Of a stretch of DNA of 8,160 nucleotides, positions 1 through 8,160 are shown piece after piece. Within the stretch, counting starts at the first letter, position 1. Each line of letters starts with the position of its first letter. Both the position numbers and the translations under genes were made by a program. Below the pieces are notes generated by a model that saw nothing but the letters and a program-made list of their open reading frames with translations, had not been told where the DNA came from and ran no database searches. Origin of the DNA: a virus (taxonomy: Duplodnaviria > Heunggongvirae > Uroviricota > Caudoviricetes); the IMG/VR virus record IMGVR_UViG_2693429621_000002, positions 1-8,160 of that record. One strand, given 5' to 3'.

Positions 1-5
1 AACAA

Positions 6-236
6 ATGGTAGTGTCCGCTATTGCCAGTACACCTCATCCATCACCGAAAAAAATTGGCTTTTACACCATTGGCGATAAAAGCATTTACCTGTATGACCT
101 ACGCCGCATGGATGAAATCATGGAGGCTCTTGATAATCGTTCGTCGATGGATTGGTGTGTTGCTGTTCATGATATGAATGCAGGGTTTGATGAAAAGATT
201 TTGTTCCCCTCATCAGTTGAAAGCACTGCGGGTTAA
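6..236 (+). CDS. hypothetical prophage protein (76 aa from first ATG; may extend 5' beyond the window)
   Basis: Open frame from ATG at 6 to TAA at 234-236; the codon before the ATG in this frame is not a stop, so the true start may lie upstream of the window. No recognisable motif. Confidence 0.4.
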   Translation: MVVSAIASTPHPSPKKIGFYTIGDKSIYLYDLRRMDEIMEALDNRSSMDWCVAVHDMNAGFDEKILFPSSVESTAG

Positions 237-246
237 GGAGTAACAC

Positions 247-414
247 ATGACCACTATTACCAAAGAACGTATTGAATTGTTCATTAAAAACCCGCTTGAA
301 AACGGGCTTACCCGTGGTGAACAAATGGAACTGGCACGGATTGCGCTGGCATCGCTGGAAGCAGAGCCGGTTGTGTTCTGGTTTGAAAAATATCAAGAAG
401 GGGCTACGGCATGA
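247..414 (+). CDS. hypothetical small protein (55 aa), N-terminal paralog of the next gene
   Basis: Strong SD AAGGAG 7 nt upstream of ATG at 247; stop TGA overlaps the next start (ATGA at 411-414). Below the 60-aa cutoff of the ORF track. Shares MTT(I/F)T(K/R)E... and ...(A/V)SL(E/A)AEP motifs with the 411-755 product. Confidence 0.55.
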
Positions 415-755
415 CGACTTTTACCAGAGAGCAGTTAATAGCTCACGCAGAGGAGACTATTGAAGCACAGAGACTGTGCATACCGGGCACAATCGACCAT
501 GACATCATCCGCACATATAAGATGGATATTGCTGTTCTGGAAATCGCACTGGTATCGCTGGCAGCAGAGCCAGCCGGTAAATTGCATGAATACAAACCAG
601 TGGGATATCAGCGTCTGGTCGATGAGTTAACCATGCTGGTAAAGCAGTTAACCTGGCAACTGAGGAAAGCGAAGCCAGACTGCAAATTACCGGATAAGGC
701 GATGAGTTATCTGGAGCGGAACGGACTGATAAGCGTGGAGGATATTTTACGATGA
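411..755 (+). CDS. hypothetical protein (114 aa), paralog of the 247-414 product
   Basis: ORF in track; start overlaps upstream stop and its own stop overlaps the next start (ATGA at 752-755), indicating translational coupling. Internal similarity to the preceding small protein. Confidence 0.6.
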
Positions 756-835
756 CCTGGCCTGAAGCATTAACAACGGTAGGAATTGCGATGGCGGTGG
801 CGCTGGTGGTGTATTCGATTTGCCGCTGGGGATAA
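752..835 (+). CDS. putative 27-aa hydrophobic membrane micro-protein ([27 protein letters not shown])
   Basis: ATG overlaps the stop of the upstream gene (ATGA); single predicted transmembrane helix; ends TAA 833-835. Too short for the ORF track. Could be a chance ORF. Confidence 0.35.
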
Positions 836-841
836 AAACGG

Positions 842-870
842 TTTGCGGGAAAAGGAGAGTTAAGTAGAAT
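842..870 (+). promoter_or_regulatory. candidate sigma70 promoter for hok mRNA (-35 TTTGCG, 17-bp spacer, -10 TAGAAT)
   Basis: Hexamers read directly; the predicted transcript start (about 877) precedes a GCTTGAGGCT motif that I recall from the 5' end of plasmid R1 hok mRNA. Confidence 0.3.
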
Positions 871-1046
871 TGCAGCGGGTGCTTGAGGCTATCTGTCTCA
901 GGCATGAACACCAAAAGGCAGATAGAGAAAAGCCCCAGTTAACATTACGCGTCCGGCAAGACGCTTAACATTAATCTGAGGCTCAATCTATGAACGGCAA
1001 ATCTAGGTTAGCCTCTTACGTGCCGAAAGGCAAGGAGAAGCAGGCT

Positions 1047-1202
1047 ATGAAGCAGCAAAAGGCGATGTTAATCGCCCTGATCGTCATCTGTTTAACCGTC
1101 ATAGTGACGGCACTGGTAACGAGGAAAGACCTCTGCGAGGTACGAATTCGAACCGGCCAGACGGAGGTCGCTGTCTTCACAGCTTACGAACCTGAGGAGT
1201 AA
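1047..1202 (+). CDS. hokD: Hok/Gef-family type I toxin, HokD/RelF-like (51 aa)
   Basis: Translation MKQQKAMLIALIVICLTVIVTALVTRKDLCEVRIRTGQTEVAVFTAYEPEE matches my recollection of E. coli HokD (RelF). The ORF track shows an in-frame 70-aa extension from ATG 990, which may be a mok-like upstream frame or an ORF-finder artefact. Confidence 0.85.
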   Translation: MKQQKAMLIALIVICLTVIVTALVTRKDLCEVRIRTGQTEVAVFTAYEPEE

Positions 1203-1271
1203 GAGACCAGGCGGGGGAGAAATCCCTCGCCACCTCTGATGGGTCAGGCATCCTCAATGCACCCACACTTA

Positions 1272-1300
1272 ACCCGCTTCGGCGGGTTTTTGTTTTTATT
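1272..1300 (+). terminator. rho-independent terminator ending the hok transcript
   Basis: Hairpin ACCCGC-TTCG-GCGGGT followed by TTTTTGTTTTTATTTT. Confidence 0.6.
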
Positions 1301-1310
1301 TTCAACGCGT

Positions 1311-1340
1311 TTGAAGTTTTAGATGGTGCCGGAATAGAAT
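1311..1340 (+). promoter_or_regulatory. candidate sigma70 promoter (-35 TTGAAG, 18-bp spacer, -10 TAGAAT)
   Basis: Hexamers read directly, about 85 nt upstream of the 1423 start codon. Confidence 0.3.
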
Positions 1341-1422
1341 CAAAAATACTTAAGTAGCGCGCAGGGAGAAGAGGGATGGACCCCGAACAGGGGAGTGCTA
1401 TTTATCTGGAAGGATTCTGTTG

Positions 1423-1704
1423 ATGAAAATCGAAGAATTACGTGAAATTTTTAGTGAAGATGGCCTCTATACTGTGCGCGTTGAGAATGGCGCTATTGTC
1501 AGCCACTGCCTTCCAGACTACACAATTCTGATAATTCAGCCGTCTTTGCCAGCAGGCACGGGCGGCGCTCTCACGCATTTAAATCTGATTGGTACCAGCA
1601 TCCCCCATGCACTGAAGAACAGGCCGAATGGCTCATTCAGTGTTACCGCAGGCGCGGATGCGAGGTTAAAAAAGCCCTTAGCCTCGACTACCGTCACTGG
1701 ATAA
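1423..1704 (+). CDS. hypothetical prophage protein (93 aa) in the position occupied by rem in Qin-like prophages
   Basis: ATG at 1423 preceded by GGAAGGA; the ORF track starts 3 nt earlier at TTG. Lies between hok and the DUF968 gene as in Qin. Identity with Rem not verified. Confidence 0.5.
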   Translation: MKIEELREIFSEDGLYTVRVENGAIVSHCLPDYTILIIQPSLPAGTGGALTHLNLIGTSIPHALKNRPNGSFSVTAGADARLKKPLASTTVTG

Positions 1705-1779
1705 TCTCCGTCAGGCTCCCTTACTCCGAACGGCCAACGCGTCCGTCCCGCACATTCCAGCAACGGATCTGGAGGTAAT

Positions 1780-2838
1780 GTGCGGGTATTACTTCGACCT
1801 GTTCTGGTACCGGAACTCGGTCTGGTTATCGTTAAGCCAGGCCGTGAATCAATGTCAGCATTCCATAACGGCAGAATACTGGTGGAGCCGGAACCAAAAA
1901 GCATGCGTAATCTGCCGTCCGGGGTCGTTCCTGCCGCTCGCCAGCCGCTGGTGGAAGACAAAACATTGCTGCCGTTTTTCAGTAACGCACGGGTGATTCG
2001 TGCTGCTGGTGGTGCTGGTGCATTGTCTGACTGGCTGTTGCGCCATATTAAATCCTGCCAGTGGCCACACGGCGATTATCATCACAGCGAAACCGTCATT
2101 CACCGTTATGGTACCGGCGCAATGGTGTTGTGCTGGCACTGCGACAACCAGCTGCGTGACCAGACATCCGAATCACTCGAGCAACTTGCTCATCAAAACC
2201 TGTCAGCATGGATGATTGACGTCATCGGTCACGCAATAAGCGGTACGCAGGAGCGTGAATTATCTCTGGCTGAATTATCCTGGTGGGCGGTCCGCAATCA
2301 GGTGGCGGACGCGCTACCGGAAGCGGTATTACGTCGTTCGCTGGGGTTGCGTGCGGAAAAAATTCGCTCTGTGTACAGTGAAAGCGACATCATACCGGGA
2401 GAGCAGACAGCCACCAGCATACTGAAGCAGCGCACAAAAAATATTGCGTTACTGCCTCACGTCCACCAGCAACAGAACCCACCACAGGAAAAGACGGTGG
2501 TCAGCATTGCCGTTGATCCGGAGTCACCGGCTCAGTATCTCCAGCGCCAGAAATCACAACGGGAAGAGATGCCTGTATACACGCGCTGGGTAAAAACGCA
2601 GAAATGCATGACGTGTGGCAATCAGGCAGATGATCCGCATCACATCATTGGTCATGGACTGGGAGGGATGGGAACAAAGGCTGATGATTTGTTTGTTATT
2701 CCGTTATGCCGTAAATGCCGTAACGAACTACATGCCGGAGTAAAAGATTTTGAAGAGAAACACGGCAGTCAGCTGTTGTTGCTGATTCGTTTTTTAATGC
2801 ACGCGAGAAATTCGGGTGTTCTGAAGTGGAAAGCATAA
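1780..2838 (+). CDS. DUF968 / YdfU-like prophage protein with C-terminal Cys/His cluster (352 aa)
   Basis: Long ORF from GTG 1780 (SD GGAGG at 1771-1775); the true start may be internal. C-terminus has CMTCGN...DPHHIIGH...PLCRKCRNELH, an HNH/zinc-finger-like arrangement. Stop TAA abuts the rusA start. Confidence 0.65.
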   Translation: MRVLLRPVLVPELGLVIVKPGRESMSAFHNGRILVEPEPKSMRNLPSGVVPAARQPLVEDKTLLPFFSNARVIRAAGGAGALSDWLLRHIKSCQWPHGDYHHSETVIHRYGTGAMVLCWHCDNQLRDQTSESLEQLAHQNLSAWMIDVIGHAISGTQERELSLAELSWWAVRNQVADALPEAVLRRSLGLRAEKIRSVYSESDIIPGEQTATSILKQRTKNIALLPHVHQQQNPPQEKTVVSIAVDPESPAQYLQRQKSQREEMPVYTRWVKTQKCMTCGNQADDPHHIIGHGLGGMGTKADDLFVIPLCRKCRNELHAGVKDFEEKHGSQLLLLIRFLMHARNSGVLKWKA

Positions 2839-3219
2839 ATGACCGAGCGCATAGAATTTGTTTTACCTTACCCGCCGACGGTGAACACTTACTGGCGTCG
2901 TCGTGGCAGCACATATTTTGTATCAAAAGCCGGGGAGCGTTATCGCCGGGCAGTGGCGCTTATTGTTCGCCAGCAGCGGCTGAAATTAAGCCTGTCCGGA
3001 AGGTTGGCAATAAAAATTATTGCAGAACCACCGGATAAGCGCCGCCGTGACCTGGACAATATTCTGAAAGCGCCGCTGGATGCGCTGACGCATGCGGGGT
3101 TGCTAATGGACGATGAGCAGTTTGATGAAATCAATATCGTTCGTGGTCAGCCAGTATCTGGTGGACGTCTGGGGGTGAAGATTTACCCCATAATGCATGA
3201 AGAGCAGGTCAAAAAATGA
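2839..3219 (+). CDS. rusA: RusA-family Holliday junction resolvase (126 aa)
   Basis: Conserved RusA blocks LPYPPTVNTYWRRRG, DKRRRDLDNILKAPLDALTHAGL and GGRLGVKI resemble E. coli RusA; SD GGAAAG upstream; stop overlaps the next start (ATGA 3216-3219). Confidence 0.85.
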   Translation: MTERIEFVLPYPPTVNTYWRRRGSTYFVSKAGERYRRAVALIVRQQRLKLSLSGRLAIKIIAEPPDKRRRDLDNILKAPLDALTHAGLLMDDEQFDEINIVRGQPVSGGRLGVKIYPIMHEEQVKK

Positions 3220-4043
3220 AACTGGAAGATTTACCGAAATACTACTCCCCAAAATCCCCCGGCCTGACTGATGCATCGGCCTCAACGTCGAAAGATGCGC
3301 TGAGTATCACTGATGTGATGGCCGCGCAGGGCATGACACAGAATCGGGCTGAGATGGGGGTTTCTGCGTTCCTTGGGAAAATGGGCATTAGTATGAATGA
3401 CAGAGAGCGGGCAACAGAATTGCTGACAGAATATGCACTCAGTCGGTGTGATCGCGTGGCGGCGTTAAGAAAACTCCCGGCAGAAATAAAACCGGCAGTG
3501 ATGCGTATTATGGCTTCGTATGCGTTTGAAGATTATGCCCGTAGCGCGGCGAGCAAAAAACAGTGCCCCTGCTGTCACGGAAAAAAATTTATTGAAAGCG
3601 AGGTTTTTACAAACAAGATCCAGTATCCGGATGGTAAGCCGCCGGTATGGGCAAAGTGTACGAAAGGTGTGTATCCGTCTTACTGGGAAGAATGGAAAAA
3701 AGTCAGGGAGGTGGTAAAAGTTGCCTGTCCGGAGTGTGGCGGAAAGGGTGAGGTTTCCACCGCCTGTAAGGATTGCCGTGGGCGTGGTGTCGCCATTCAT
3801 CGTGAAGAGTCGGTAAAACGTGGTATGCCTGTTATCAGAGACTGCCAGCGTTGTGGTGGTCGTGGCTATGAAAGACTACCATCAACGGAGGCATTTAATG
3901 CTATATGCGAGGTGACAAACCAGATAACACGCGCGTCATGGGAAAAAACAGTTAAGAAATTCTATGATGCGCTGGTGACTCGGTTTGATATTGAAGAAGC
4001 ATGGGCTGAGCGGCAGTTAAAAAAGGTAACTAGGTNAGGTTGA
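3216..4043 (+). CDS. Q-type late antiterminator, QuuQ-like, with zinc-finger motifs (about 274 aa)
   Basis: Repeated CxxC motifs (CPCCHGKKF, CPECGGKG...CKDCRGRG, CQRCGGRG); lies immediately upstream of a promoter plus terminator pair typical of PR'/tR'. The 3' end contains an N at 4036; the duplicate copy shows the true C-terminus ...KKVTR. Confidence 0.7.
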   Translation: MKLEDLPKYYSPKSPGLTDASASTSKDALSITDVMAAQGMTQNRAEMGVSAFLGKMGISMNDRERATELLTEYALSRCDRVAALRKLPAEIKPAVMRIMASYAFEDYARSAASKKQCPCCHGKKFIESEVFTNKIQYPDGKPPVWAKCTKGVYPSYWEEWKKVREVVKVACPECGGKGEVSTACKDCRGRGVAIHREESVKRGMPVIRDCQRCGGRGYERLPSTEAFNAICEVTNQITRASWEKTVKKFYDALVTRFDIEEAWAERQLKKVTRXG

Positions 4044-4128
4044 TTTTTCCGGAATCTGTGGTAAATTCGTCATAACTATGGGCGTTTTATGCCTGACGTT
4101 AGAAGAGTTTCTACAACCCGCCGCCGAG
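3629..4128. repeat. copy 1 of duplicated segment (Q 3' end, PR'-like promoter, start of tR' hairpin) ending at the scaffold gap
   Basis: Matches 4150-4651 except for three substitutions (3962 C/T, 3980 T/C, 4076 T/G) and a small indel around the N at 4036. A copy of the promoter sits at about 4040-4067. Confidence 0.9.
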
Positions 4129-4149
4129 NNNNNNNNNNNNNNNNNNNNN
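4129..4149. other. scaffold gap (21 N)
   Basis: Run of N characters read directly. Confidence 0.97.
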
Positions 4150-4558
4150 GGATGGTAAGCCGCCGGTATGGGCAAAGTGTACGAAAGGTGTGTATCCGTC
4201 TTACTGGGAAGAATGGAAAAAAGTCAGGGAGGTGGTAAAAGTTGCCTGTCCGGAGTGTGGCGGAAAGGGTGAGGTTTCCACCGCCTGTAAGGATTGCCGT
4301 GGGCGTGGTGTCGCCATTCATCGTGAAGAGTCGGTAAAACGTGGTATGCCTGTTATCAGAGACTGCCAGCGTTGTGGTGGTCGTGGCTATGAAAGACTAC
4401 CATCAACGGAGGCATTTAATGCTATATGCGAGGTGACAAACCAGATAACACGCGCGTCATGGGAAAAAACAGTTAAGAAATTTTATGATGCGCTGGTGAC
4501 CCGGTTTGATATTGAAGAAGCATGGGCTGAGCGGCAGTTAAAAAAGGTAACTAGGTAA
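4150..4558 (+). pseudogene. duplicated 3' portion of the Q antiterminator ORF (partial, begins at gap edge); probably contig overlap rather than a separate gene
   Basis: In-frame continuation of Q codons ending ...QLKKVTR-TAA at 4556-4558. The ORF track reports only the part from the internal ATG at 4190. Confidence 0.6.
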
Positions 4559-4563
4559 CAAGG

Positions 4564-4591
4564 TTGATTTTTCCGGAATCTGTGGTAAATT
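4564..4591 (+). promoter_or_regulatory. PR'-like late promoter (-35 TTGATT, 16-bp spacer, -10 TAAATT), presumed Q-utilisation region
   Basis: Hexamers read directly, immediately 3' of the Q gene, with a terminator about 60 nt downstream; this is the lambdoid PR'/qut/tR' arrangement. Confidence 0.55.
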
Positions 4592-4638
4592 CGTCATAAC
4601 GATGGGCGTTTTATGCCTGACGTTAGAAGAGTTTCTAC

Positions 4639-4663
4639 AACCCGCCGCCGAGCGGGTTTTTTA
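4639..4663 (+). terminator. tR'-like rho-independent terminator
   Basis: Hairpin AACCCGC-CGCCGA-GCGGGTT followed by TTTTTTAT. Confidence 0.65.
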
Positions 4664-4782
4664 TGACTGAAATCGCGTCAGTACAGTAAACGCGCTGGTG
4701 GCGGTGAATACCTGTCTTTCAGCTTGCTGGCTTTTTCGACAAGAGTTATTGGTGTGTCACGTTAACCGGAAAAGGAAAAGAC

Positions 4783-4980
4783 ATGCTAAAACAGCAGGAT
4801 ATGACAGAAACCGCCAGAGTGGTGTTTAATGAATTAAGCGTTACCGAACCGGCGACAGTCGGGGAGATAGCGCAGAATACTTACCTTTCACGCGAACGCT
4901 GCCAGTTAATACTGACCCAGCTGGTTATGGCGGGTCTGGCAGACTATCAGTTCGGTTGTTACAGACGCCTTCCGCAGTGA
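4783..4980 (+). CDS. small putative winged-helix/HTH DNA-binding protein (65 aa)
   Basis: SD AAAGGAAAAG 6 nt before ATG; the segment PATVGEIAQNTYLSRERCQLILTQLVMAGLA looks like a helix-turn-helix. An alternative start is ATG 4801. Confidence 0.5.
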   Translation: MLKQQDMTETARVVFNELSVTEPATVGEIAQNTYLSRERCQLILTQLVMAGLADYQFGCYRRLPQ

Positions 4981-4994
4981 AGGCTTTTTTATTT
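4967..4994 (+). terminator. rho-independent terminator overlapping the stop codon of the 4783-4980 ORF
   Basis: Hairpin GCCTTC-CGCAGT-GAAGGC followed by TTTTTTATTT. Confidence 0.5.
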
Positions 4995-5007
4995 GTGGTA
5001 AATGGGC

Positions 5008-5038
5008 GGCTGGTGGGTGTTAGGGGCACCCACCAGCC
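5008..5038 (+). promoter_or_regulatory. perfect 12-bp inverted repeat hairpin (GGCTGGTGGGTG-ttagggg-CACCCACCAGCC) upstream of the methyltransferase gene
   Basis: Read directly; not followed by a T-run. A near-palindrome CTGCTTTGCGCAAAAGCAG lies at 5080-5098, about 35 nt before the methyltransferase start. Confidence 0.4.
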
Positions 5039-5130
5039 ATCTGCTCATGCGTTGGGTTCACAAGCAAACCTCAGGCCCACTGCTTTGCGCAAAAGCAGAA
5101 TGAGCCTATCAGAGACAGGCTTAATGATCC

Positions 5131-6189
5131 ATGCTTAATACTGTAAAAATATCCAGTTGTGAGTTAATCAACGCCGACTGCCTGGAATTTATCCGGTCGT
5201 TACCCGAAAATTCTGTTGACCTGATAGTCACGGACCCGCCGTACTTTAAAGTGAAGCCTGAGGGCTGGGATAACCAGTGGAAGGGCGACGATGATTACCT
5301 GAAGTGGCTGGACCAGTGTCTGGCGCAGTTCTGGCGGGTGCTGAAACCTGCCGGAAGTCTTTACCTGTTCTGTGGTCATCGCCTGGCATCTGATATCGAA
5401 ATCATGATGCGTGAACGCTTCAGTGTGCTGAACCATATTATCTGGGCGAAGCCGTCCGGACGCTGGAACGGATGCAACAAGGAAAGCCTGCGGGCGTATT
5501 TCCCCGCCACAGAGCGCATTCTGTTCGCGGAACATTATCAGGGGCCGTATCGTCCGAAAGATGCCGGGTATGCGGCGAAGGGCAGTGCACTGAAACAGCA
5601 TGTGATGGCCCCGCTGATTTCTTACTTTCGTGATGCGCGAGCTGCCCTGGGGATAACGGCAAAACAGATTGCAGATGCCACAGGAAAGAAAAACATGGTG
5701 TCGCACTGGTTCAGTGCCGGTCAGTGGCAGTTGCCGAATGAAAGCGATTATCTGAAATTACAGGCGCTGTTTGCCCGGGTGGCAGAAGAGAAGCATCGGC
5801 GTGGTGAACTGGAAAAGCTCCACCACCAGCTGGTGGATACGTATACCTCACTGAACCGGCAGTATGCGGAGCTGCTGAGTGAATATAAACATCTGCGGCG
5901 GTATTTTGGCGTGACGGTGCAGGTGCCGTATACCGATGTGTGGACGCATAAACCGGTGCAGTTCTATCCCGGGAAACATCCGTGCGAAAAACCGGCAGAA
6001 ATGCTGCAGCAGATAATCAGCGCTAGCAGTCGTCCGGGTGACCTGATTGCAGATTTTTTCATGGGGTTGGGTTCGACAGTGAAAGCGGCACTGGCGCTCG
6101 GGCGTCGTGCAATTGGCGTTGAGCTGGAGACTGAACGTTTTGAGCAGACGGTTCGGGAAGTACAGGATTTAGTCAGCCAGAACGGATGA
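5131..6189 (+). CDS. beta-class DNA amino-methyltransferase, probably N6-adenine, orphan (352 aa)
   Basis: N-terminal motif IV LIVTDPPYF and C-terminal motif I DFFMGLGST. This order (IV before I) is the beta-class arrangement, and DPPY favours N6-adenine. No restriction endonuclease ORF is adjacent. Confidence 0.85.
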   Translation: MLNTVKISSCELINADCLEFIRSLPENSVDLIVTDPPYFKVKPEGWDNQWKGDDDYLKWLDQCLAQFWRVLKPAGSLYLFCGHRLASDIEIMMRERFSVLNHIIWAKPSGRWNGCNKESLRAYFPATERILFAEHYQGPYRPKDAGYAAKGSALKQHVMAPLISYFRDARAALGITAKQIADATGKKNMVSHWFSAGQWQLPNESDYLKLQALFARVAEEKHRRGELEKLHHQLVDTYTSLNRQYAELLSEYKHLRRYFGVTVQVPYTDVWTHKPVQFYPGKHPCEKPAEMLQQIISASSRPGDLIADFFMGLGSTVKAALALGRRAIGVELETERFEQTVREVQDLVSQNG

Positions 6190-6229
6190 TATTGAAGAAT
6201 TAATTACGCGTCGTTATTATGCGGCTCCC

Positions 6230-6305
6230 GGCCCTTTAGCTCAGTGGTGAGAGCGAGCGACTCATAATCGCCAGGTCGCTGGTTCAAATCCAGCAAGGGC
6301 CACCA
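6230..6305 (+). tRNA. ileZ: tRNA-Ile2 (anticodon CAU, lysidine type; ileX/ileZ-like), 76 nt with encoded CCA
   Basis: Manual cloverleaf: acceptor GGCCCTT/AAGGGCC, D-arm GCTC-AGTGGTGA-GAGC, anticodon loop CTCATAA, T-loop TTCAAAT. Closely resembles my recollection of E. coli ileX. Confidence 0.85.
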
Positions 6306-6312
6306 TCACATA

Positions 6313-6389
6313 CCGCCATTAGCTCATCAGGAAAGAGCGCCAGCCTTCGAAGCTGGCTGCGCGGGGTTCAAGTCCCCGATGGCGGTCCA
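6313..6389 (+). tRNA. argN: tRNA-Arg (anticodon UCG), 77 nt with encoded CCA
   Basis: Acceptor CCGCCAT/ATGGCGG, anticodon stem CCAGC/GCTGG, loop CTTCGAA, T-arm CGGGG-TTCAAGT-CCCCG, discriminator T, CCA. Confidence 0.8.
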
Positions 6390-6402
6390 TTATCTGCATC
6401 AT

Positions 6403-6479
6403 GCGTTGTTAGCTCAGCCGGACAGAGCAATTGCCTTCTAAGCAATCGGTCACTGGTTCGAATCCAGTACAGCGCGCCA
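6403..6479 (+). tRNA. argO: tRNA-Arg (anticodon UCU), 77 nt with encoded CCA
   Basis: Acceptor GCGTTGT/ACAGCGC (one G-U pair), anticodon stem ATTGC/GCAAT, loop CTTCTAA, T-loop TTCGAAT, discriminator G, CCA. Confidence 0.85.
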
Positions 6480-6616
6480 TATTCATTCTTCCAGATTCCT
6501 TCCGGCAGAGCCTTATACTGAAATATACCTGGCTCAGGATATTGTTGAAAATATTTTATGTTTGTCAAAAATAAAAGTTCTGTTAAGTATTGATTGAGTG
6601 TTTGTTATACGGTCTA

Positions 6617-6943
6617 ATGGTTTTTTCAGCATTAAATATTTATCATTCATATGGTGTGGGTAGAGTGAATATTGATGAGGCGTCGGGGTGTTTCATCCTT
6701 AGGCAGCGTATTGATATAGTCAATGCAGCACGAGCAAAGGCCTTCAGCCGTTTGACAGTTTTGTTCTGTACTCCTGATCGTCTTTCGGGAAGAGACGTTA
6801 TTATTCTGAATAGTGATGCTATACAGAGGGTTTGCGATGAGTTCATGGTTGCTAATTCAGAATTATTTGCTCTTGTTCAGGAGTACAACAGAATAGCCAG
6901 GACCTGTGGTATGGATGAACTTCGGATTACTCATCTGGGGTAG
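6617..6943 (+). CDS. hypothetical cargo protein (108 aa from first ATG; ORF track extends to TTG at 6590)
   Basis: Open frame of more than 100 codons in an AT-rich region; no clear SD. Arg codons are 6/11 AGA/AGG plus one CGA, and Ile includes 3 ATA, matching the adjacent tRNAs. No recognisable domain. Confidence 0.4.
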   Translation: MVFSALNIYHSYGVGRVNIDEASGCFILRQRIDIVNAARAKAFSRLTVLFCTPDRLSGRDVIILNSDAIQRVCDEFMVANSELFALVQEYNRIARTCGMDELRITHLG

Positions 6944-7023
6944 ATACATATCTGGATTATCACCTGTTACGGTAAAAAGTGATTGCTTACTGTTTTTGTG
7001 AATGGCATTGCAGCAGCCGGATA

Positions 7024-7110
7024 ATGTCAGTGCTGGCTGACGGTGTGCTGGTGGCGGGTGTGGTGGTTGTTGCTTTCCCGTTGCTGAAAAAGAAAACGCC
7101 AGACTGTTAG
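7024..7110 (+). CDS. possible 28-aa hydrophobic micro-protein (MSVLADGVLVAGVVVVAFPLLKKKTPDC)
   Basis: ATG with weak SD (GGA); one hydrophobic helix followed by KKK. Speculative; may be non-coding. Confidence 0.2.
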   Translation: MSVLADGVLVAGVVVVAFPLLKKKTPDC

Positions 7111-7335
7111 CCGGGTATCAGTTAGCGGGAGAAATTTTTAAATACTTCACAATTCAGGCGGTTGACTGTTGTCTGGTTTGCGGGGAGTTTGTTAAAAGAA
7201 ACTGGCATGGTGAATCCCCCTGTGCGGAGGGGCAATCAGCGAGTAGGTATATGGGATAATCGCGGATTCAGGTGCTGGTACTGAATTCACCGGGAGGCAC
7301 CCGGCACCATGCAATGGCACATAGCGCCACTCTCC

Positions 7336-7370
7336 AGCCCCTCTCCGGAGGGGCTGTTTATATTGATTTT
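7336..7370 (+). terminator. strong rho-independent terminator, + orientation
   Basis: Perfect 8-bp stem AGCCCCTC-tccg-GAGGGGCT followed by GTTTATATTGATTTT. Confidence 0.6.
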
Positions 7371-7387
7371 GTCAGATGTGAGTAAAC

Positions 7388-7421
7388 TCCTTATGGACTT
7401 TGTTGTTTTAGTCCATAAGGA
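7388..7421. promoter_or_regulatory. perfect 12-bp inverted repeat (TCCTTATGGACT-ttgttgtttt-AGTCCATAAGGA) overlapping the stop codon of the minus-strand ORF
   Basis: Read directly; on the minus-strand mRNA the last 10 codons and the stop lie inside this hairpin. Confidence 0.4.
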
Positions 7422-7726
7422 CATATTTGCAGAGTGCAACGGTTATTAAAGCATTCATTCAATACGTTATCTGTATTTGTAGGGCATTCCTGGCTATTTT
7501 TGATTGAATTCCAGAATGTTTTATTGAATGGTACTACGTTGTAAATGGTTACAGGTAGCACTTTGTTATTGAGCATGATGCCTGTGTGAGTCAGTGTAAA
7601 TATACTTTCAGGAGGTAAGAAAGCATCCGATTGATACCAGATTATTAATTTTATTTTACTCCATATGACTGAAAAAGATATTCCGCATGATGGCTGGATA
7701 ACTGTATCAATCACAATCCACTTCAT
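7391..7726 (-). CDS. hypothetical cargo protein (111 aa), antisense to the phage late operon, Cys-containing C-terminus
   Basis: ATG at 7726 with SD AAGGA 7 nt upstream; 6 of 13 Ile codons are the rare ATA (read by the adjacent tRNA-Ile2). C-terminal [25 protein letters not shown] has four Cys. No recognisable domain. Confidence 0.6.
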
Positions 7727-7986
7727 TTAGTTTCCTTGTTTATGCCTTGCTGGTGATGTTCTGAAAAGTATAAATGATATTTTTGAATGTAAACCATAGA
7801 GCAGAATTATTTTTCTGATGTTGTTTATTGTTTATTTAAATGCAGGGTGGTTTATATCTCGTCTTGTAGTTTATCCATGCATATCTGCTTGATAATCAGG
7901 TTTTTATTTAAGGTATGGTTTTGTGTTTTTTCTGTATTACATGTCAGGTATTTTAAAGAATTATTTTTCAGATGGTGGAAAGAACC

Positions 7987-8160
7987 ATGGCATTTAAACA
8001 CTATGATGTTGTCAGGGCGGCGCCGCCGTCAGATCTTGCGGAAAAGCTGACACATAAACTGAAAGAGGGCTGGCAGCCGTTTGGTAGTCCGGTGGCCATA
8101 ACCCCTTATACCCTGAGGTGTACTGGCAATAGCGGACACTACCATTTGTTCTTTTTTTAA
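7987..8160 (+). CDS. small prophage protein (57 aa from ATG 7987; 62 aa from ATG 7972), tentatively DUF1737-like
   Basis: SD-like GGTGGAAAG before ATG 7987; stop TAA at 8158-8160 directly after a T7 homopolymer at the window edge. Similarity to the N-terminal domain of Stx-phage NanS-p-type esterases is from memory and unverified. Confidence 0.45.
   Translation: MAFKHYDVVRAAPPSDLAEKLTHKLKEGWQPFGSPVAITPYTLRCTGNSGHYHLFFF

Follow-up and report, generated by a model that had tools for sequence, protein, structure and literature searches.

Positions 247-835 of an 8,160-nucleotide (nt) stretch of tailed-phage DNA (IMG/VR record IMGVR_UViG_2693429621_000002, positions 1 to 8,160; Caudoviricetes; the whole stretch is called the window below) are probably the distal end of a mosaic lambdoid 'ea'-type accessory early gene array, rather than a self-contained toxin-antitoxin (TA) or defence operon. 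The region comprises three open reading frames (ORFs), designated here ORF1, ORF2 and ORF3. A previous sequence-only reading had described them as a translationally coupled cassette of two paralogs and a membrane peptide, lying upstream of hok and resembling TA or phage-exclusion modules. Its account of the layout was borne out, as the three ORFs lie where it placed them, successive genes overlap in the stop/start sequence ATGA (411-414 for ORF1/ORF2 and 752-755 for ORF2/ORF3), ORF3 encodes a single hydrophobic helix, and hok is found downstream. The proposed cassette, on the other hand, gained no support from family matches, predicted folds or promoter prediction, and ORF1, ORF2 and ORF3 do not travel together from locus to locus. 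We propose that ORF1 and ORF2 would be small soluble all-helical proteins built from interchangeable modules, and that ORF3, to judge from the way its sequence varies, is a genuine protein-coding gene, conserved, common and largely missed by annotation. On present evidence, no new defence or TA system is shown.

The genomic context agrees with an accessory array. In a near-identical chromosome, ORF1 and ORF2 are situated within the early rightward operon of a Rac/Qin-like lambdoid prophage, in which genes for the repressor/Cro, YdaT and replication proteins are followed by three ead/Ea22-like genes, several small hypothetical genes, a further small reading frame (ORF0), ORF1, ORF2, hokD, DUF968, RusA and Q; the window ORFs located 3' of hok match DUF968, RusA, antiterminator Q and a DNA methylase. 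A comparison with 5426 complete E. coli genomes shows the block 1-1400 covered to at least 80% in 241 of them, at ~98-99% identity. Since this block is conserved and the substitution pattern of ORF3 is of the coding type, we regard ORF1-ORF3 as beyond chance. At near-identical loci RefSeq labels both ORF1 (WP_000207997.1) and ORF2 (WP_000206826.1) as hypothetical protein.

Interchangeable modules in ORF1 and ORF2

Neither ORF1 nor ORF2 is hydrophobic. The claim that they are paralogs holds for a common N-terminal module (N-module; 33% identity over ~54 residues, E=1e-5) and fails for the C-terminal module (C-module) of ORF2, which is absent from ORF1. Both proteins display the features of the EaA/YfdT type, namely an N-module of ~45 amino acids (aa), a start of the form MTTxTKE... 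and a predicted helical hairpin (PHROGs 3323, 660, 60 and 5117). ORF1 matches PHROGs 3323 (1.3e-19) and 60 (4.3e-18), families without assigned function, and aligns with the N-terminal part of phrog_3323, phrog_660 and phrog_5117 and with the internal stretch 116-165 of phrog_60. ORF2 matches phrog_660 (8.2e-43), and a further similarity links its last ~50 residues with the C-terminal ends of phrog_924 and phrog_8171. In BLASTP comparisons ORF1 exhibits 47% identity to the N-terminus of TH18 EaA (E=6e-8) and ORF2 exhibits 41% identity over 54 aa to YfdT of E. coli K-12 (E=8e-6); source annotations name ORF1 'EaA/Eaa protein'. The same N-module also heads DUF551 proteins, and in the DUF551-containing relatives P0064, P0066 and P0098 it is the sole part in common with ORF1 and ORF2; the DUF551 profile itself (PF04448; ..THWMPLPEPP) is matched by none of ORF1-ORF3. 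Neither ORF1 nor ORF2 has a match in Pfam, NCBIfam or PADLOC, and the Pfam family Ead_Ea22 was not matched even at E<=10. The sequence-only reading, which recognised none of the proteins, had named a match to lambdoid housekeeping proteins as the outcome that would speak against a TA-like cassette; such a match was found in part, in the form of similarity to 'ea'-type accessory families (PHROGs 3323, 660 and 60).

Homology searches and structure predictions, which had been put forward as a way of checking the two proteins, thus recovered the EaA/YfdT-type module and no TA fold or family. The AlphaFold2 (AF2) model of ORF2 (pLDDT 77.9) comprises helices 6-26, 30-51, 65-87, 95-103 and 109-113, of which the first two form a hairpin at pLDDT >90 and the other three are less confident, with a disordered linker at 55-62. 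In the model of ORF1 (pLDDT 69.5) the hairpin is shorter (helices 6-14 and 23-39) and the tail is disordered. Foldseek comparison of the ORF2 model with the PDB and BFVD gave no match at E<0.1 and only generic helical hairpins at E>0.1, and a profile search of the PDB returned nothing below E=0.1.

The alignment of ORF2 relatives resolves into alternative N-modules, an optional insert of 0-110 aa, and a nearly invariant C-module that starts with ELTMLVKQL. A search of 1.84 billion representative proteins yielded 291 clusters that match ORF2; among the matching clusters listed, proteins of 50-389 aa nearly always carry the C-module at or very near their C-terminal end, and the N-module is N-terminal. 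ORF1 and ORF2 each contain, at the end of the N-module, one copy of a 29-nt direct repeat (Table 1), which encodes the conserved 10-residue motif that closes the module. The homology of phage ArgO145 to the window starts at ~356, near the first copy of the repeat, and a natural fusion protein, P0031, consists of ORF1(1-36) and ORF2(51-114) joined at the motif that ends the N-module. From the sequence, the 29-nt repeat is likely a recombination joint at the module boundary.

In ArgO145 the position of ORF1 is held by the gene for an HNH endonuclease, and this protein ends in exactly the 15-aa tail of ORF1. Among 76 IMG/VR loci whose ORF2 is near-identical, the gene before it is the 55-aa ORF1 in 54 cases and the HNH endonuclease in 19, while the remaining three loci carry a 61-aa allele with another N-module and the same 15-aa tail, bringing the ORF1-type total to 57; in all of the 57 loci that carry this stub (57/57) the ORF1-type ORF is intact. 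The HNH gene of ArgO145 (locus L004, 2194-2559) ends with the same 15 codons as ORF1 (window 370-414) and has the same ATGA junction to ORF2. These shared codons and the shared junction suggest an insertion or replacement at the joint, possibly of a homing-like kind. Taken together, the common N-module, the repeat joint, the fusion protein P0031 and the shared tail lead us to regard the 'two paralogs' as two uses of one shuffling module. ORF1 would consist of just the N-module, joined to the final 15 codons of the gene, whichever it is, that stands before ORF2, and ORF2 would combine an N-module with a portable C-terminal module.

Among the known systems, the EaA/YfdT-type proteins (EaA, and YfdT of K-12 CPS-53) resemble ORF1 and ORF2 in the N-module and in the neighbourhood of an ea-gene array, but the C-terminal part of YfdT is unrelated to that of ORF2, and no ORF3 follows yfdT in K-12. 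YfdT is the only relative of ORF1 and ORF2 with functional data: multicopy yfdQRT or yfdQRS inhibits replication initiation, and YfdT and YfdS are interchangeable (PMC4776307). Because only the N-module is common, the role of YfdT is not confidently transferable to ORF1 or ORF2. The Ea22 proteins are also mosaic, with a shared N-terminal/coiled-coil part and swappable C-terminal domains that include DUF551 (PMC10834534). Lambda Ea22 and its family Ead_Ea22 (PF13935, IPR025153) are similar to ORF1 and ORF2 in modular design and in their occurrence in the same gene arrays; however, ORF1 and ORF2 possess neither a match to the profile nor the coiled-coil region nor an Ea22 C-terminal domain, so that nothing about their role can be deduced from the pro-lysogenic phenotype of Ea22.

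ORF3, a predicted membrane micropeptide

The hydrophobic window of ORF3 spans 17 residues (7-23), with a Kyte-Doolittle mean of 2.16. To sample its variation, a degenerate DNA pattern for the first seven codons was searched for in viral contigs, where it occurs at 120 sites; a 27-codon ORF is present at 96 of them, in 48 distinct DNA versions. In codons 8-27, which lie outside the pattern, the entropies of the three codon positions are 0.44/0.24/0.71, the third position being the most variable, and pN/pS amounts to 0.42; both values speak for a coding gene. In tblastn searches ORF3 was found in 91 phage records at 55-96% identity, and divergent members at 55-63% identity keep the 27 codons. 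Apart from that of POCJ13, which carries an early stop, the homologs inspected have 27 codons, and they start at (or adjoining) the stop codon of an EaA, Ea22-like, H0068, DUF551 or L0139 gene. When the search was anchored independently, on the terminal PEPPQEV of DUF551 genes, it yielded further variants, e.g. MSWPDAIVTLGVVFAAAFVVFSICRWG. The consensus can be written as M-x-W-P-[ED]-A-[FLI]-x3-G-(hydrophobic)-[YF]-x-[IL]-[CF]-R-W-G, and ORF3 of the window has all these features. Mosaic breakpoints bracket the gene, as the homology of the window to 933W, where the upstream gene is L0139, starts at the ATG of ORF3, and that to ArgO145 ends just past its stop codon. When loci are anchored on ORF2 alone, ORF3 is intact in ~75 of 81; the others all have one 1-nt deletion, which phage 689R5 carries too.

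No Pfam, PHROG or NCBIfam model covers ORF3, the gene is without annotation at the four RefSeq loci inspected, and a full-text literature search with its N-terminus MTWPEA found no paper in the library searched; database entries for exactly this peptide exist in a few cases, under the names 'prophage protein' or 'hypothetical protein'. In some annotations an antisense ORF of 55-57 aa, which covers ORF3 and the hok promoter region, is called instead (L427/L429 1939-2112; POCJ13 gp73, L089 1506-1634). Its counterpart in the window (747-914, minus strand) was rejected, since the variation pattern of ORF3 would make antisense position 2 the most variable. The grouping of the 27-aa peptides under the cluster name 'DUF551 domain-containing protein' was treated as a clustering or naming artefact, the DUF551 representatives being without the peptide. 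ORF3 was also considered as a lipoprotein and rejected: the lipobox L-[ASTVI]-[GAS]-C is absent, the sequence being ..Y-S-I-C with an unfit Ile at position -1, and the variant in VT1-Sakai has Phe in place of the Cys (..LYSLFRWG). A role as holin was discarded for a gene that lies outside the lysis cassette. The weak sub-threshold matches of ORF3, namely the glycine-zipper family DUF883_C, KdpF, PTR2, PetL and phrog_4612, were treated as compositional.

ORF3-like DNA is present in 1634 of the 5426 complete E. coli genomes (~30%); a single genome may contain as many as 7 copies, and 163 of the places lie on plasmids. ORF3 is found in the Shiga toxin (Stx)-converting phages 933W and VT1/VT2-Sakai. 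The gene upstream of 96 ORF3 copies is of the ORF2 type in 41 cases, the DUF551 type in 39, the L0139 type in 8, and another type in 8. ORF3 comes after the genes for the C-module proteins P0065 and P0100 (in two of the four places for P0065, its ATG has become ATA), what comes after the C-module protein P0081 is a DUF551 gene instead, and ORF3 is missing after approximately half of the DUF551-type genes that end with PEPPQEV. ORFs of 23-36 aa with M[TN]WP[ED]A[FL] and a hydrophobic helix were also noticed in viral contigs with 35-66% GC, all of them overlapping the upstream ORF in ATGA; such ORFs of the MxWPEAF type are located at L099, L108, L123, L156, L158, L168, L193, L195, L201 and L206, and their sequences suggest that they may be distant members of the ORF3 family. 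In bacterial genome contigs, the matches listed for the same pattern are almost only chance matches in unrelated genomes, and rarely of the type with ATGA and a helix.

We envisage the following scenario for the three genes. The start codon of ORF3 overlaps the upstream stop codon, and its ribosome-binding site lies within the last codons of the upstream gene, which implies termination-reinitiation coupling; DUF551-type genes upstream of ORF3 carry equivalent AGGAGG motifs within their last codons, and Shine-Dalgarno-like motifs precede ORF1 (AAGGAG) and ORF2 (GAAGGGG). ORF1-3 would be silent in the repressed prophage and would be transcribed by the early rightward operon upon induction or infection. 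The ORF3 peptide, with its acidic N-terminus and an Arg near the C-terminus, would insert in the inner membrane in the N-out/C-in orientation, and it may act via its small-xxx-small (G/A-xxx-A) helix face on a host or phage membrane protein. It could adjust membrane physiology or exclude a superinfecting phage, and would in either case be an early-expressed inner-membrane modulator. ORF1 and ORF2 could function as oligomerising adaptors, like other Ea-type proteins.

Several observations weigh against this scenario and against the placement of the region in an 'ea'-type array. The function, topology and early-operon expression of ORF1-3 are features that we infer. No plus-strand promoter was predicted in 1-1300, but the scan was a crude consensus search and bases 1-37 are probably artefactual. 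The pN/pS of ORF3, 0.42, derives from non-independent pairwise comparisons within a sample chosen by the first seven codons. Inactivated alleles of ORF3 circulate, with a 1-nt deletion after the ATGA (689R5, L005 3553-3663; several IMG/VR loci), an ATG changed to ATA (L427/L429 ~1920), or a stop at codon 3 (POCJ13, L089 1501-1581), which indicates that the gene is dispensable and that some copies are decaying. We found no expression data for ORF3, and an ORF3-like peptide is absent from the accessible parts of two ribosome-profiling supplements for enterohaemorrhagic E. coli, whose ORF length cut-offs may exclude 27 aa. Finally, about half of the sampled ORF3 copies are directly upstream of hok, which could mean a functional link.

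Toxin-antitoxin modules and competing explanations

Within Pfam, NCBIfam and PADLOC, no type II toxin family (such as RelE/ParE, MazF, HicA or Doc) was found for ORF1-3, and no such fold was found for the ORF2 model in the PDB or BFVD. An antitoxin DNA-binding domain (helix-turn-helix, ribbon-helix-helix, AbrB, Phd/YefM) was not found either, the AF2 models consisting of helical hairpins and disordered segments. The co-inheritance expected of type II partners is not observed, as the HNH gene replaces ORF1 in 19 of 76 loci and the gene upstream of ORF3 varies. ORF3 is a small hydrophobic peptide, as in type I systems; this is a matter of compatibility only and says nothing of toxicity. No type I antisense RNA over ORF3 was found, sok being the only RNA family nearby and having no overlap with ORF3. 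ORF3 resembles Hok, TisB, DinQ, KdpF and AcrZ-like micropeptides in its size, its one hydrophobic helix and its small-xxx-small motifs. However, unlike the type I toxins, it has no family match, antisense RNA, predicted promoter of its own or long structured leader, and its translation starts within the stop codon of the preceding gene. Because there is no match to a TA family or fold and no promoter predicted in the crude consensus scan, and because the three genes are not co-inherited, we do not consider the region to be a TA unit. A TA-like layout in a lambdoid 'ea' region can arise from module shuffling alone.

The earlier reading had correctly stated that in the Qin prophage of K-12 relBE is situated upstream of hokD in the same orientation (the order is relB-relE-hokD-rem-ydfU-ydfT), and it had assigned ORF1-3 to the same slot. 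ORF1-3 are indeed comparable to K-12 relBE in orientation and in their operon position upstream of hok and of DUF968 (ydfU)-Q, but relBE is a bona fide type II TA pair, whereas the window has ea-type genes and a complete hok/sok instead. The homology of K-12 to the window starts only at 1033, inside the hok leader (window 1033-1490 vs K-12 L330 5833-6289). It follows that hokD of K-12 is without the leader/sok part (877-1032) that is intact in the window, and that the relBE slot and the ORF1-3 slot have no common boundary.

The gene content that follows ORF3 differs among relatives: hok/sok in the window and in 933W, and, both in ArgO145 and in the chromosome of an O111:H11 strain, a ParD/ParE-RelE pair in convergent orientation, with relBE and a truncated hokD at the counterpart position in K-12 Qin. 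As far as these sequences can tell, the position right after ORF3 is a recurrent landing site for TA modules. Among 89 evaluable loci, hok lies within 600 nt after ORF3 in 47 and is not found there in 42; the copies of ORF3 without hok include some that precede xis/int, at the opposite extreme of the phage map (in WGPS2 and VT1-Sakai), and some that precede a ParDE pair. In the window, TAGAAT at 865-870 is a possible -10 element of hok.

Other micropeptide genes are also found in front of hok. At hok loci without ORF3, another small ORF with a single transmembrane (TM) segment lies just upstream in 25 of 77 cases, vs 47 of 1860 random positions (examples include L333, L373 and L342). The position before hok/sok is held by at least two other small single-TM ORF families, one represented by MSDDISLAMEGALAVIAVVGVYCLVVFLMDRLGN (ECs_5710 / XECs145) and one by MEKVDVLILIFGYINALFLGVFMAVMCIEYWR. 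In the Sakai prophage Sp6, a DUF551-type gene (ECs_1518), an unannotated ORF3 homolog (MIWPEAFAITGVAIAIDFLVYVICRWG; L425 2344-2427), ECs_5710 (L425 2463-2567) and hok/sok follow one another, an order that implies two tandem micropeptide genes in front of hok/sok. XECs145, which is identical with ECs_5710, showed high ribosome coverage in Sakai lysogens (RIBOseq: 346 reads per kilobase per million; ribosome coverage value 4.35; PMC5597208).

These data can be read in ways other than the one we prefer. ORF1-3 might form a TA or abortive-infection/exclusion module, with ORF3 as the membrane toxin and ORF1/ORF2 as antitoxin or regulator. The size and hydrophobicity of ORF3 (27 aa; 2.16) are like those of type I toxins, the genes are tightly packed with ATGA overlaps, the accessory region adjoins real TA modules, and knock-out alleles are expected of a costly gene; yet ORF1-3 match no TA or defence family, ORF1 and ORF2 exhibit neither a DNA-binding nor a known antitoxin fold, no promoter of their own is predicted, the only antisense RNA family nearby, sok, misses ORF3, and the candidate partners come apart, ORF3 being found with at least three unrelated types of upstream genes and ORF1 being swappable for the HNH endonuclease. 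Such a module therefore seems improbable to us. No more can be said for a real unit of ORF3 and hok/sok, in which ORF3 would modulate or neutralise Hok-type peptides, or which would constitute a two-peptide membrane module. It would account for the presence of hok within 600 nt of ORF3 in 47 of 89 loci whatever the type of the upstream gene, for the conserved block of 933W that spans the ORF3 ATG through hok, for the single-TM ORFs in front of ORF3-less hok loci (25/77 vs 47/1860) and for the strong ribosome coverage of ECs_5710/XECs145 in Sakai lysogens. On the other hand, 42 of the 89 copies of ORF3 have no hok nearby, a mosaic breakpoint falls exactly between the stop codon of ORF3 and the hok promoter region, and the enrichment may reflect only the gathering of small ORFs and TA modules at operon ends, so that we attach a low probability to this unit.

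The strict overlap of ORF3 with the upstream stop codon also invites the view that the peptide is a membrane anchor for the upstream protein, coupled translation giving a stoichiometric, tethered complex of ORF2 (via its C-module) and ORF3. The C-module is found almost only at C-termini among the clusters listed, and ORF3 comes after P0065 and P0100, which carry this module. This anchor is hardly probable either, considering that three unrelated C-terminal ends precede ORF3, among them ..PLPEPPQEVNQ and ..NDLKNIEQKVNQ, that P0081, a C-module protein, precedes a DUF551 gene instead, and that about half of the DUF551-type genes ending with PEPPQEV are without ORF3. An even more sceptical position would be that ORF3 is no gene. 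The conserved 84 nt might then act as DNA or as RNA, for instance as a site of recombination or as an upstream portion of hok, or else the real gene would be the antisense ORF at 747-914. Some pipelines do call the antisense ORF (L427, L429; POCJ13 gp73), and ORF3 is unannotated at the RefSeq loci inspected; we nevertheless regard this as almost certainly wrong, because the codon-position entropies fit the frame of ORF3, the 27 codons are fixed over the 48 DNA versions and the divergent members (55-63%), ORF3 occurs without hok, and the Rfam match of sok begins only at 877. It is conceivable, although rather unlikely, that ORF3 stands for a large uncurated phage micropeptide family (MxWPEAF and a TM helix) whose membrane function is tied to the TA landing site that follows; candidate roles may then include control of Hok-type toxins or of membrane energisation at prophage induction, or a block to superinfection. 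We prefer to regard 247-835 as the end of an accessory 'ea'-type array, of which ORF3 is the last gene.

Layout of the window and implications

The coordinates of the features discussed are collected in Table 1. The intact homolog of ORF0 has 87 aa (its full form is present in the relative L001). Bases 1-37 of the window repeat 8114-8150 exactly in inverted orientation, and similarity to E. coli genomes starts only at 38/39; this segment probably arose at the contig end as an artefact of assembly. The start that ORF0 seems to have must then be artefactual as well, because it lies within the inverted copy. A repeat search found no inverted repeats in 200-900. Within the Q antiterminator gene there is an N at 4036 and a run of 21 Ns at 4129-4149, flanked by a 500-nt duplication (3629-4128 = 4150-4652, 98.6% identity); the duplication, 3629-4652, looks like a scaffolding artefact and not a real one. 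Located 3' of the methylase gene are a tRNA-Met/Arg/Arg cluster and the STnc100 small RNA (6230-6479, 7176-7365), followed by a minus-strand ORF (7391-7726) whose equivalent in the relative L001 is annotated as an IraM-type anti-adapter. A tRNA cluster, a small RNA and an IraM-type ORF are typical cargo upstream of the late region in Stx-like prophages.

Table 1. Features in and around the ORF1-ORF3 region (window coordinates unless a locus is named)
Feature	Position	Strand	Remarks
ORF0	6..236	+	phrog_1714 match 5.3e-37; function not assigned by family; truncated or chimeric in window
ORF1	247..414	+	55 aa; EaA/YfdT-type N-module (~residues 1-41) and 15-aa tail
29-nt direct repeat, copy 1	340..368	+	in ORF1, end of N-module; 86% identity to copy 2
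ORF2	411..755	+	114 aa; N-module variant 1-54, disordered linker 55-62, C-terminal module ~68-114
29-nt direct repeat, copy 2	543..571	+	in ORF2, end of N-module
ORF3 Shine-Dalgarno GGAGGA	737..742	+	read from sequence; within last ORF2 codons (..VED..)
ORF3	752..835	+	27 aa; predicted single-pass membrane micropeptide; ATG overlaps ORF2 stop
Position of TA modules after ORF3	836-876; L004 2981-3616; L514 688-1288; L330 6120-6873		
hok mRNA leader / sok antisense region	877..1052	+	Rfam RF01794, 112.4 bits, full-length; ~40 nt after ORF3
mok with nested hok (1047-1202)	990..1202	+	Pfam HOK_GEF 1.2e-23; hokD in RefSeq relatives
Intrinsic terminator, end of hok transcript	1271..1297	+	predicted

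The lambdoid accessory families of which ORF1 and ORF2 are members are known but uncharacterised, and the family of ORF3 has been uncurated so far. The analysis also locates a recurrent point of TA insertion just downstream of ORF3. Phage-encoded micropeptides are an under-explored class, and ORF3 offers a cheap experimental target within medically relevant prophages. A family model for ORF3 would correct thousands of annotations.

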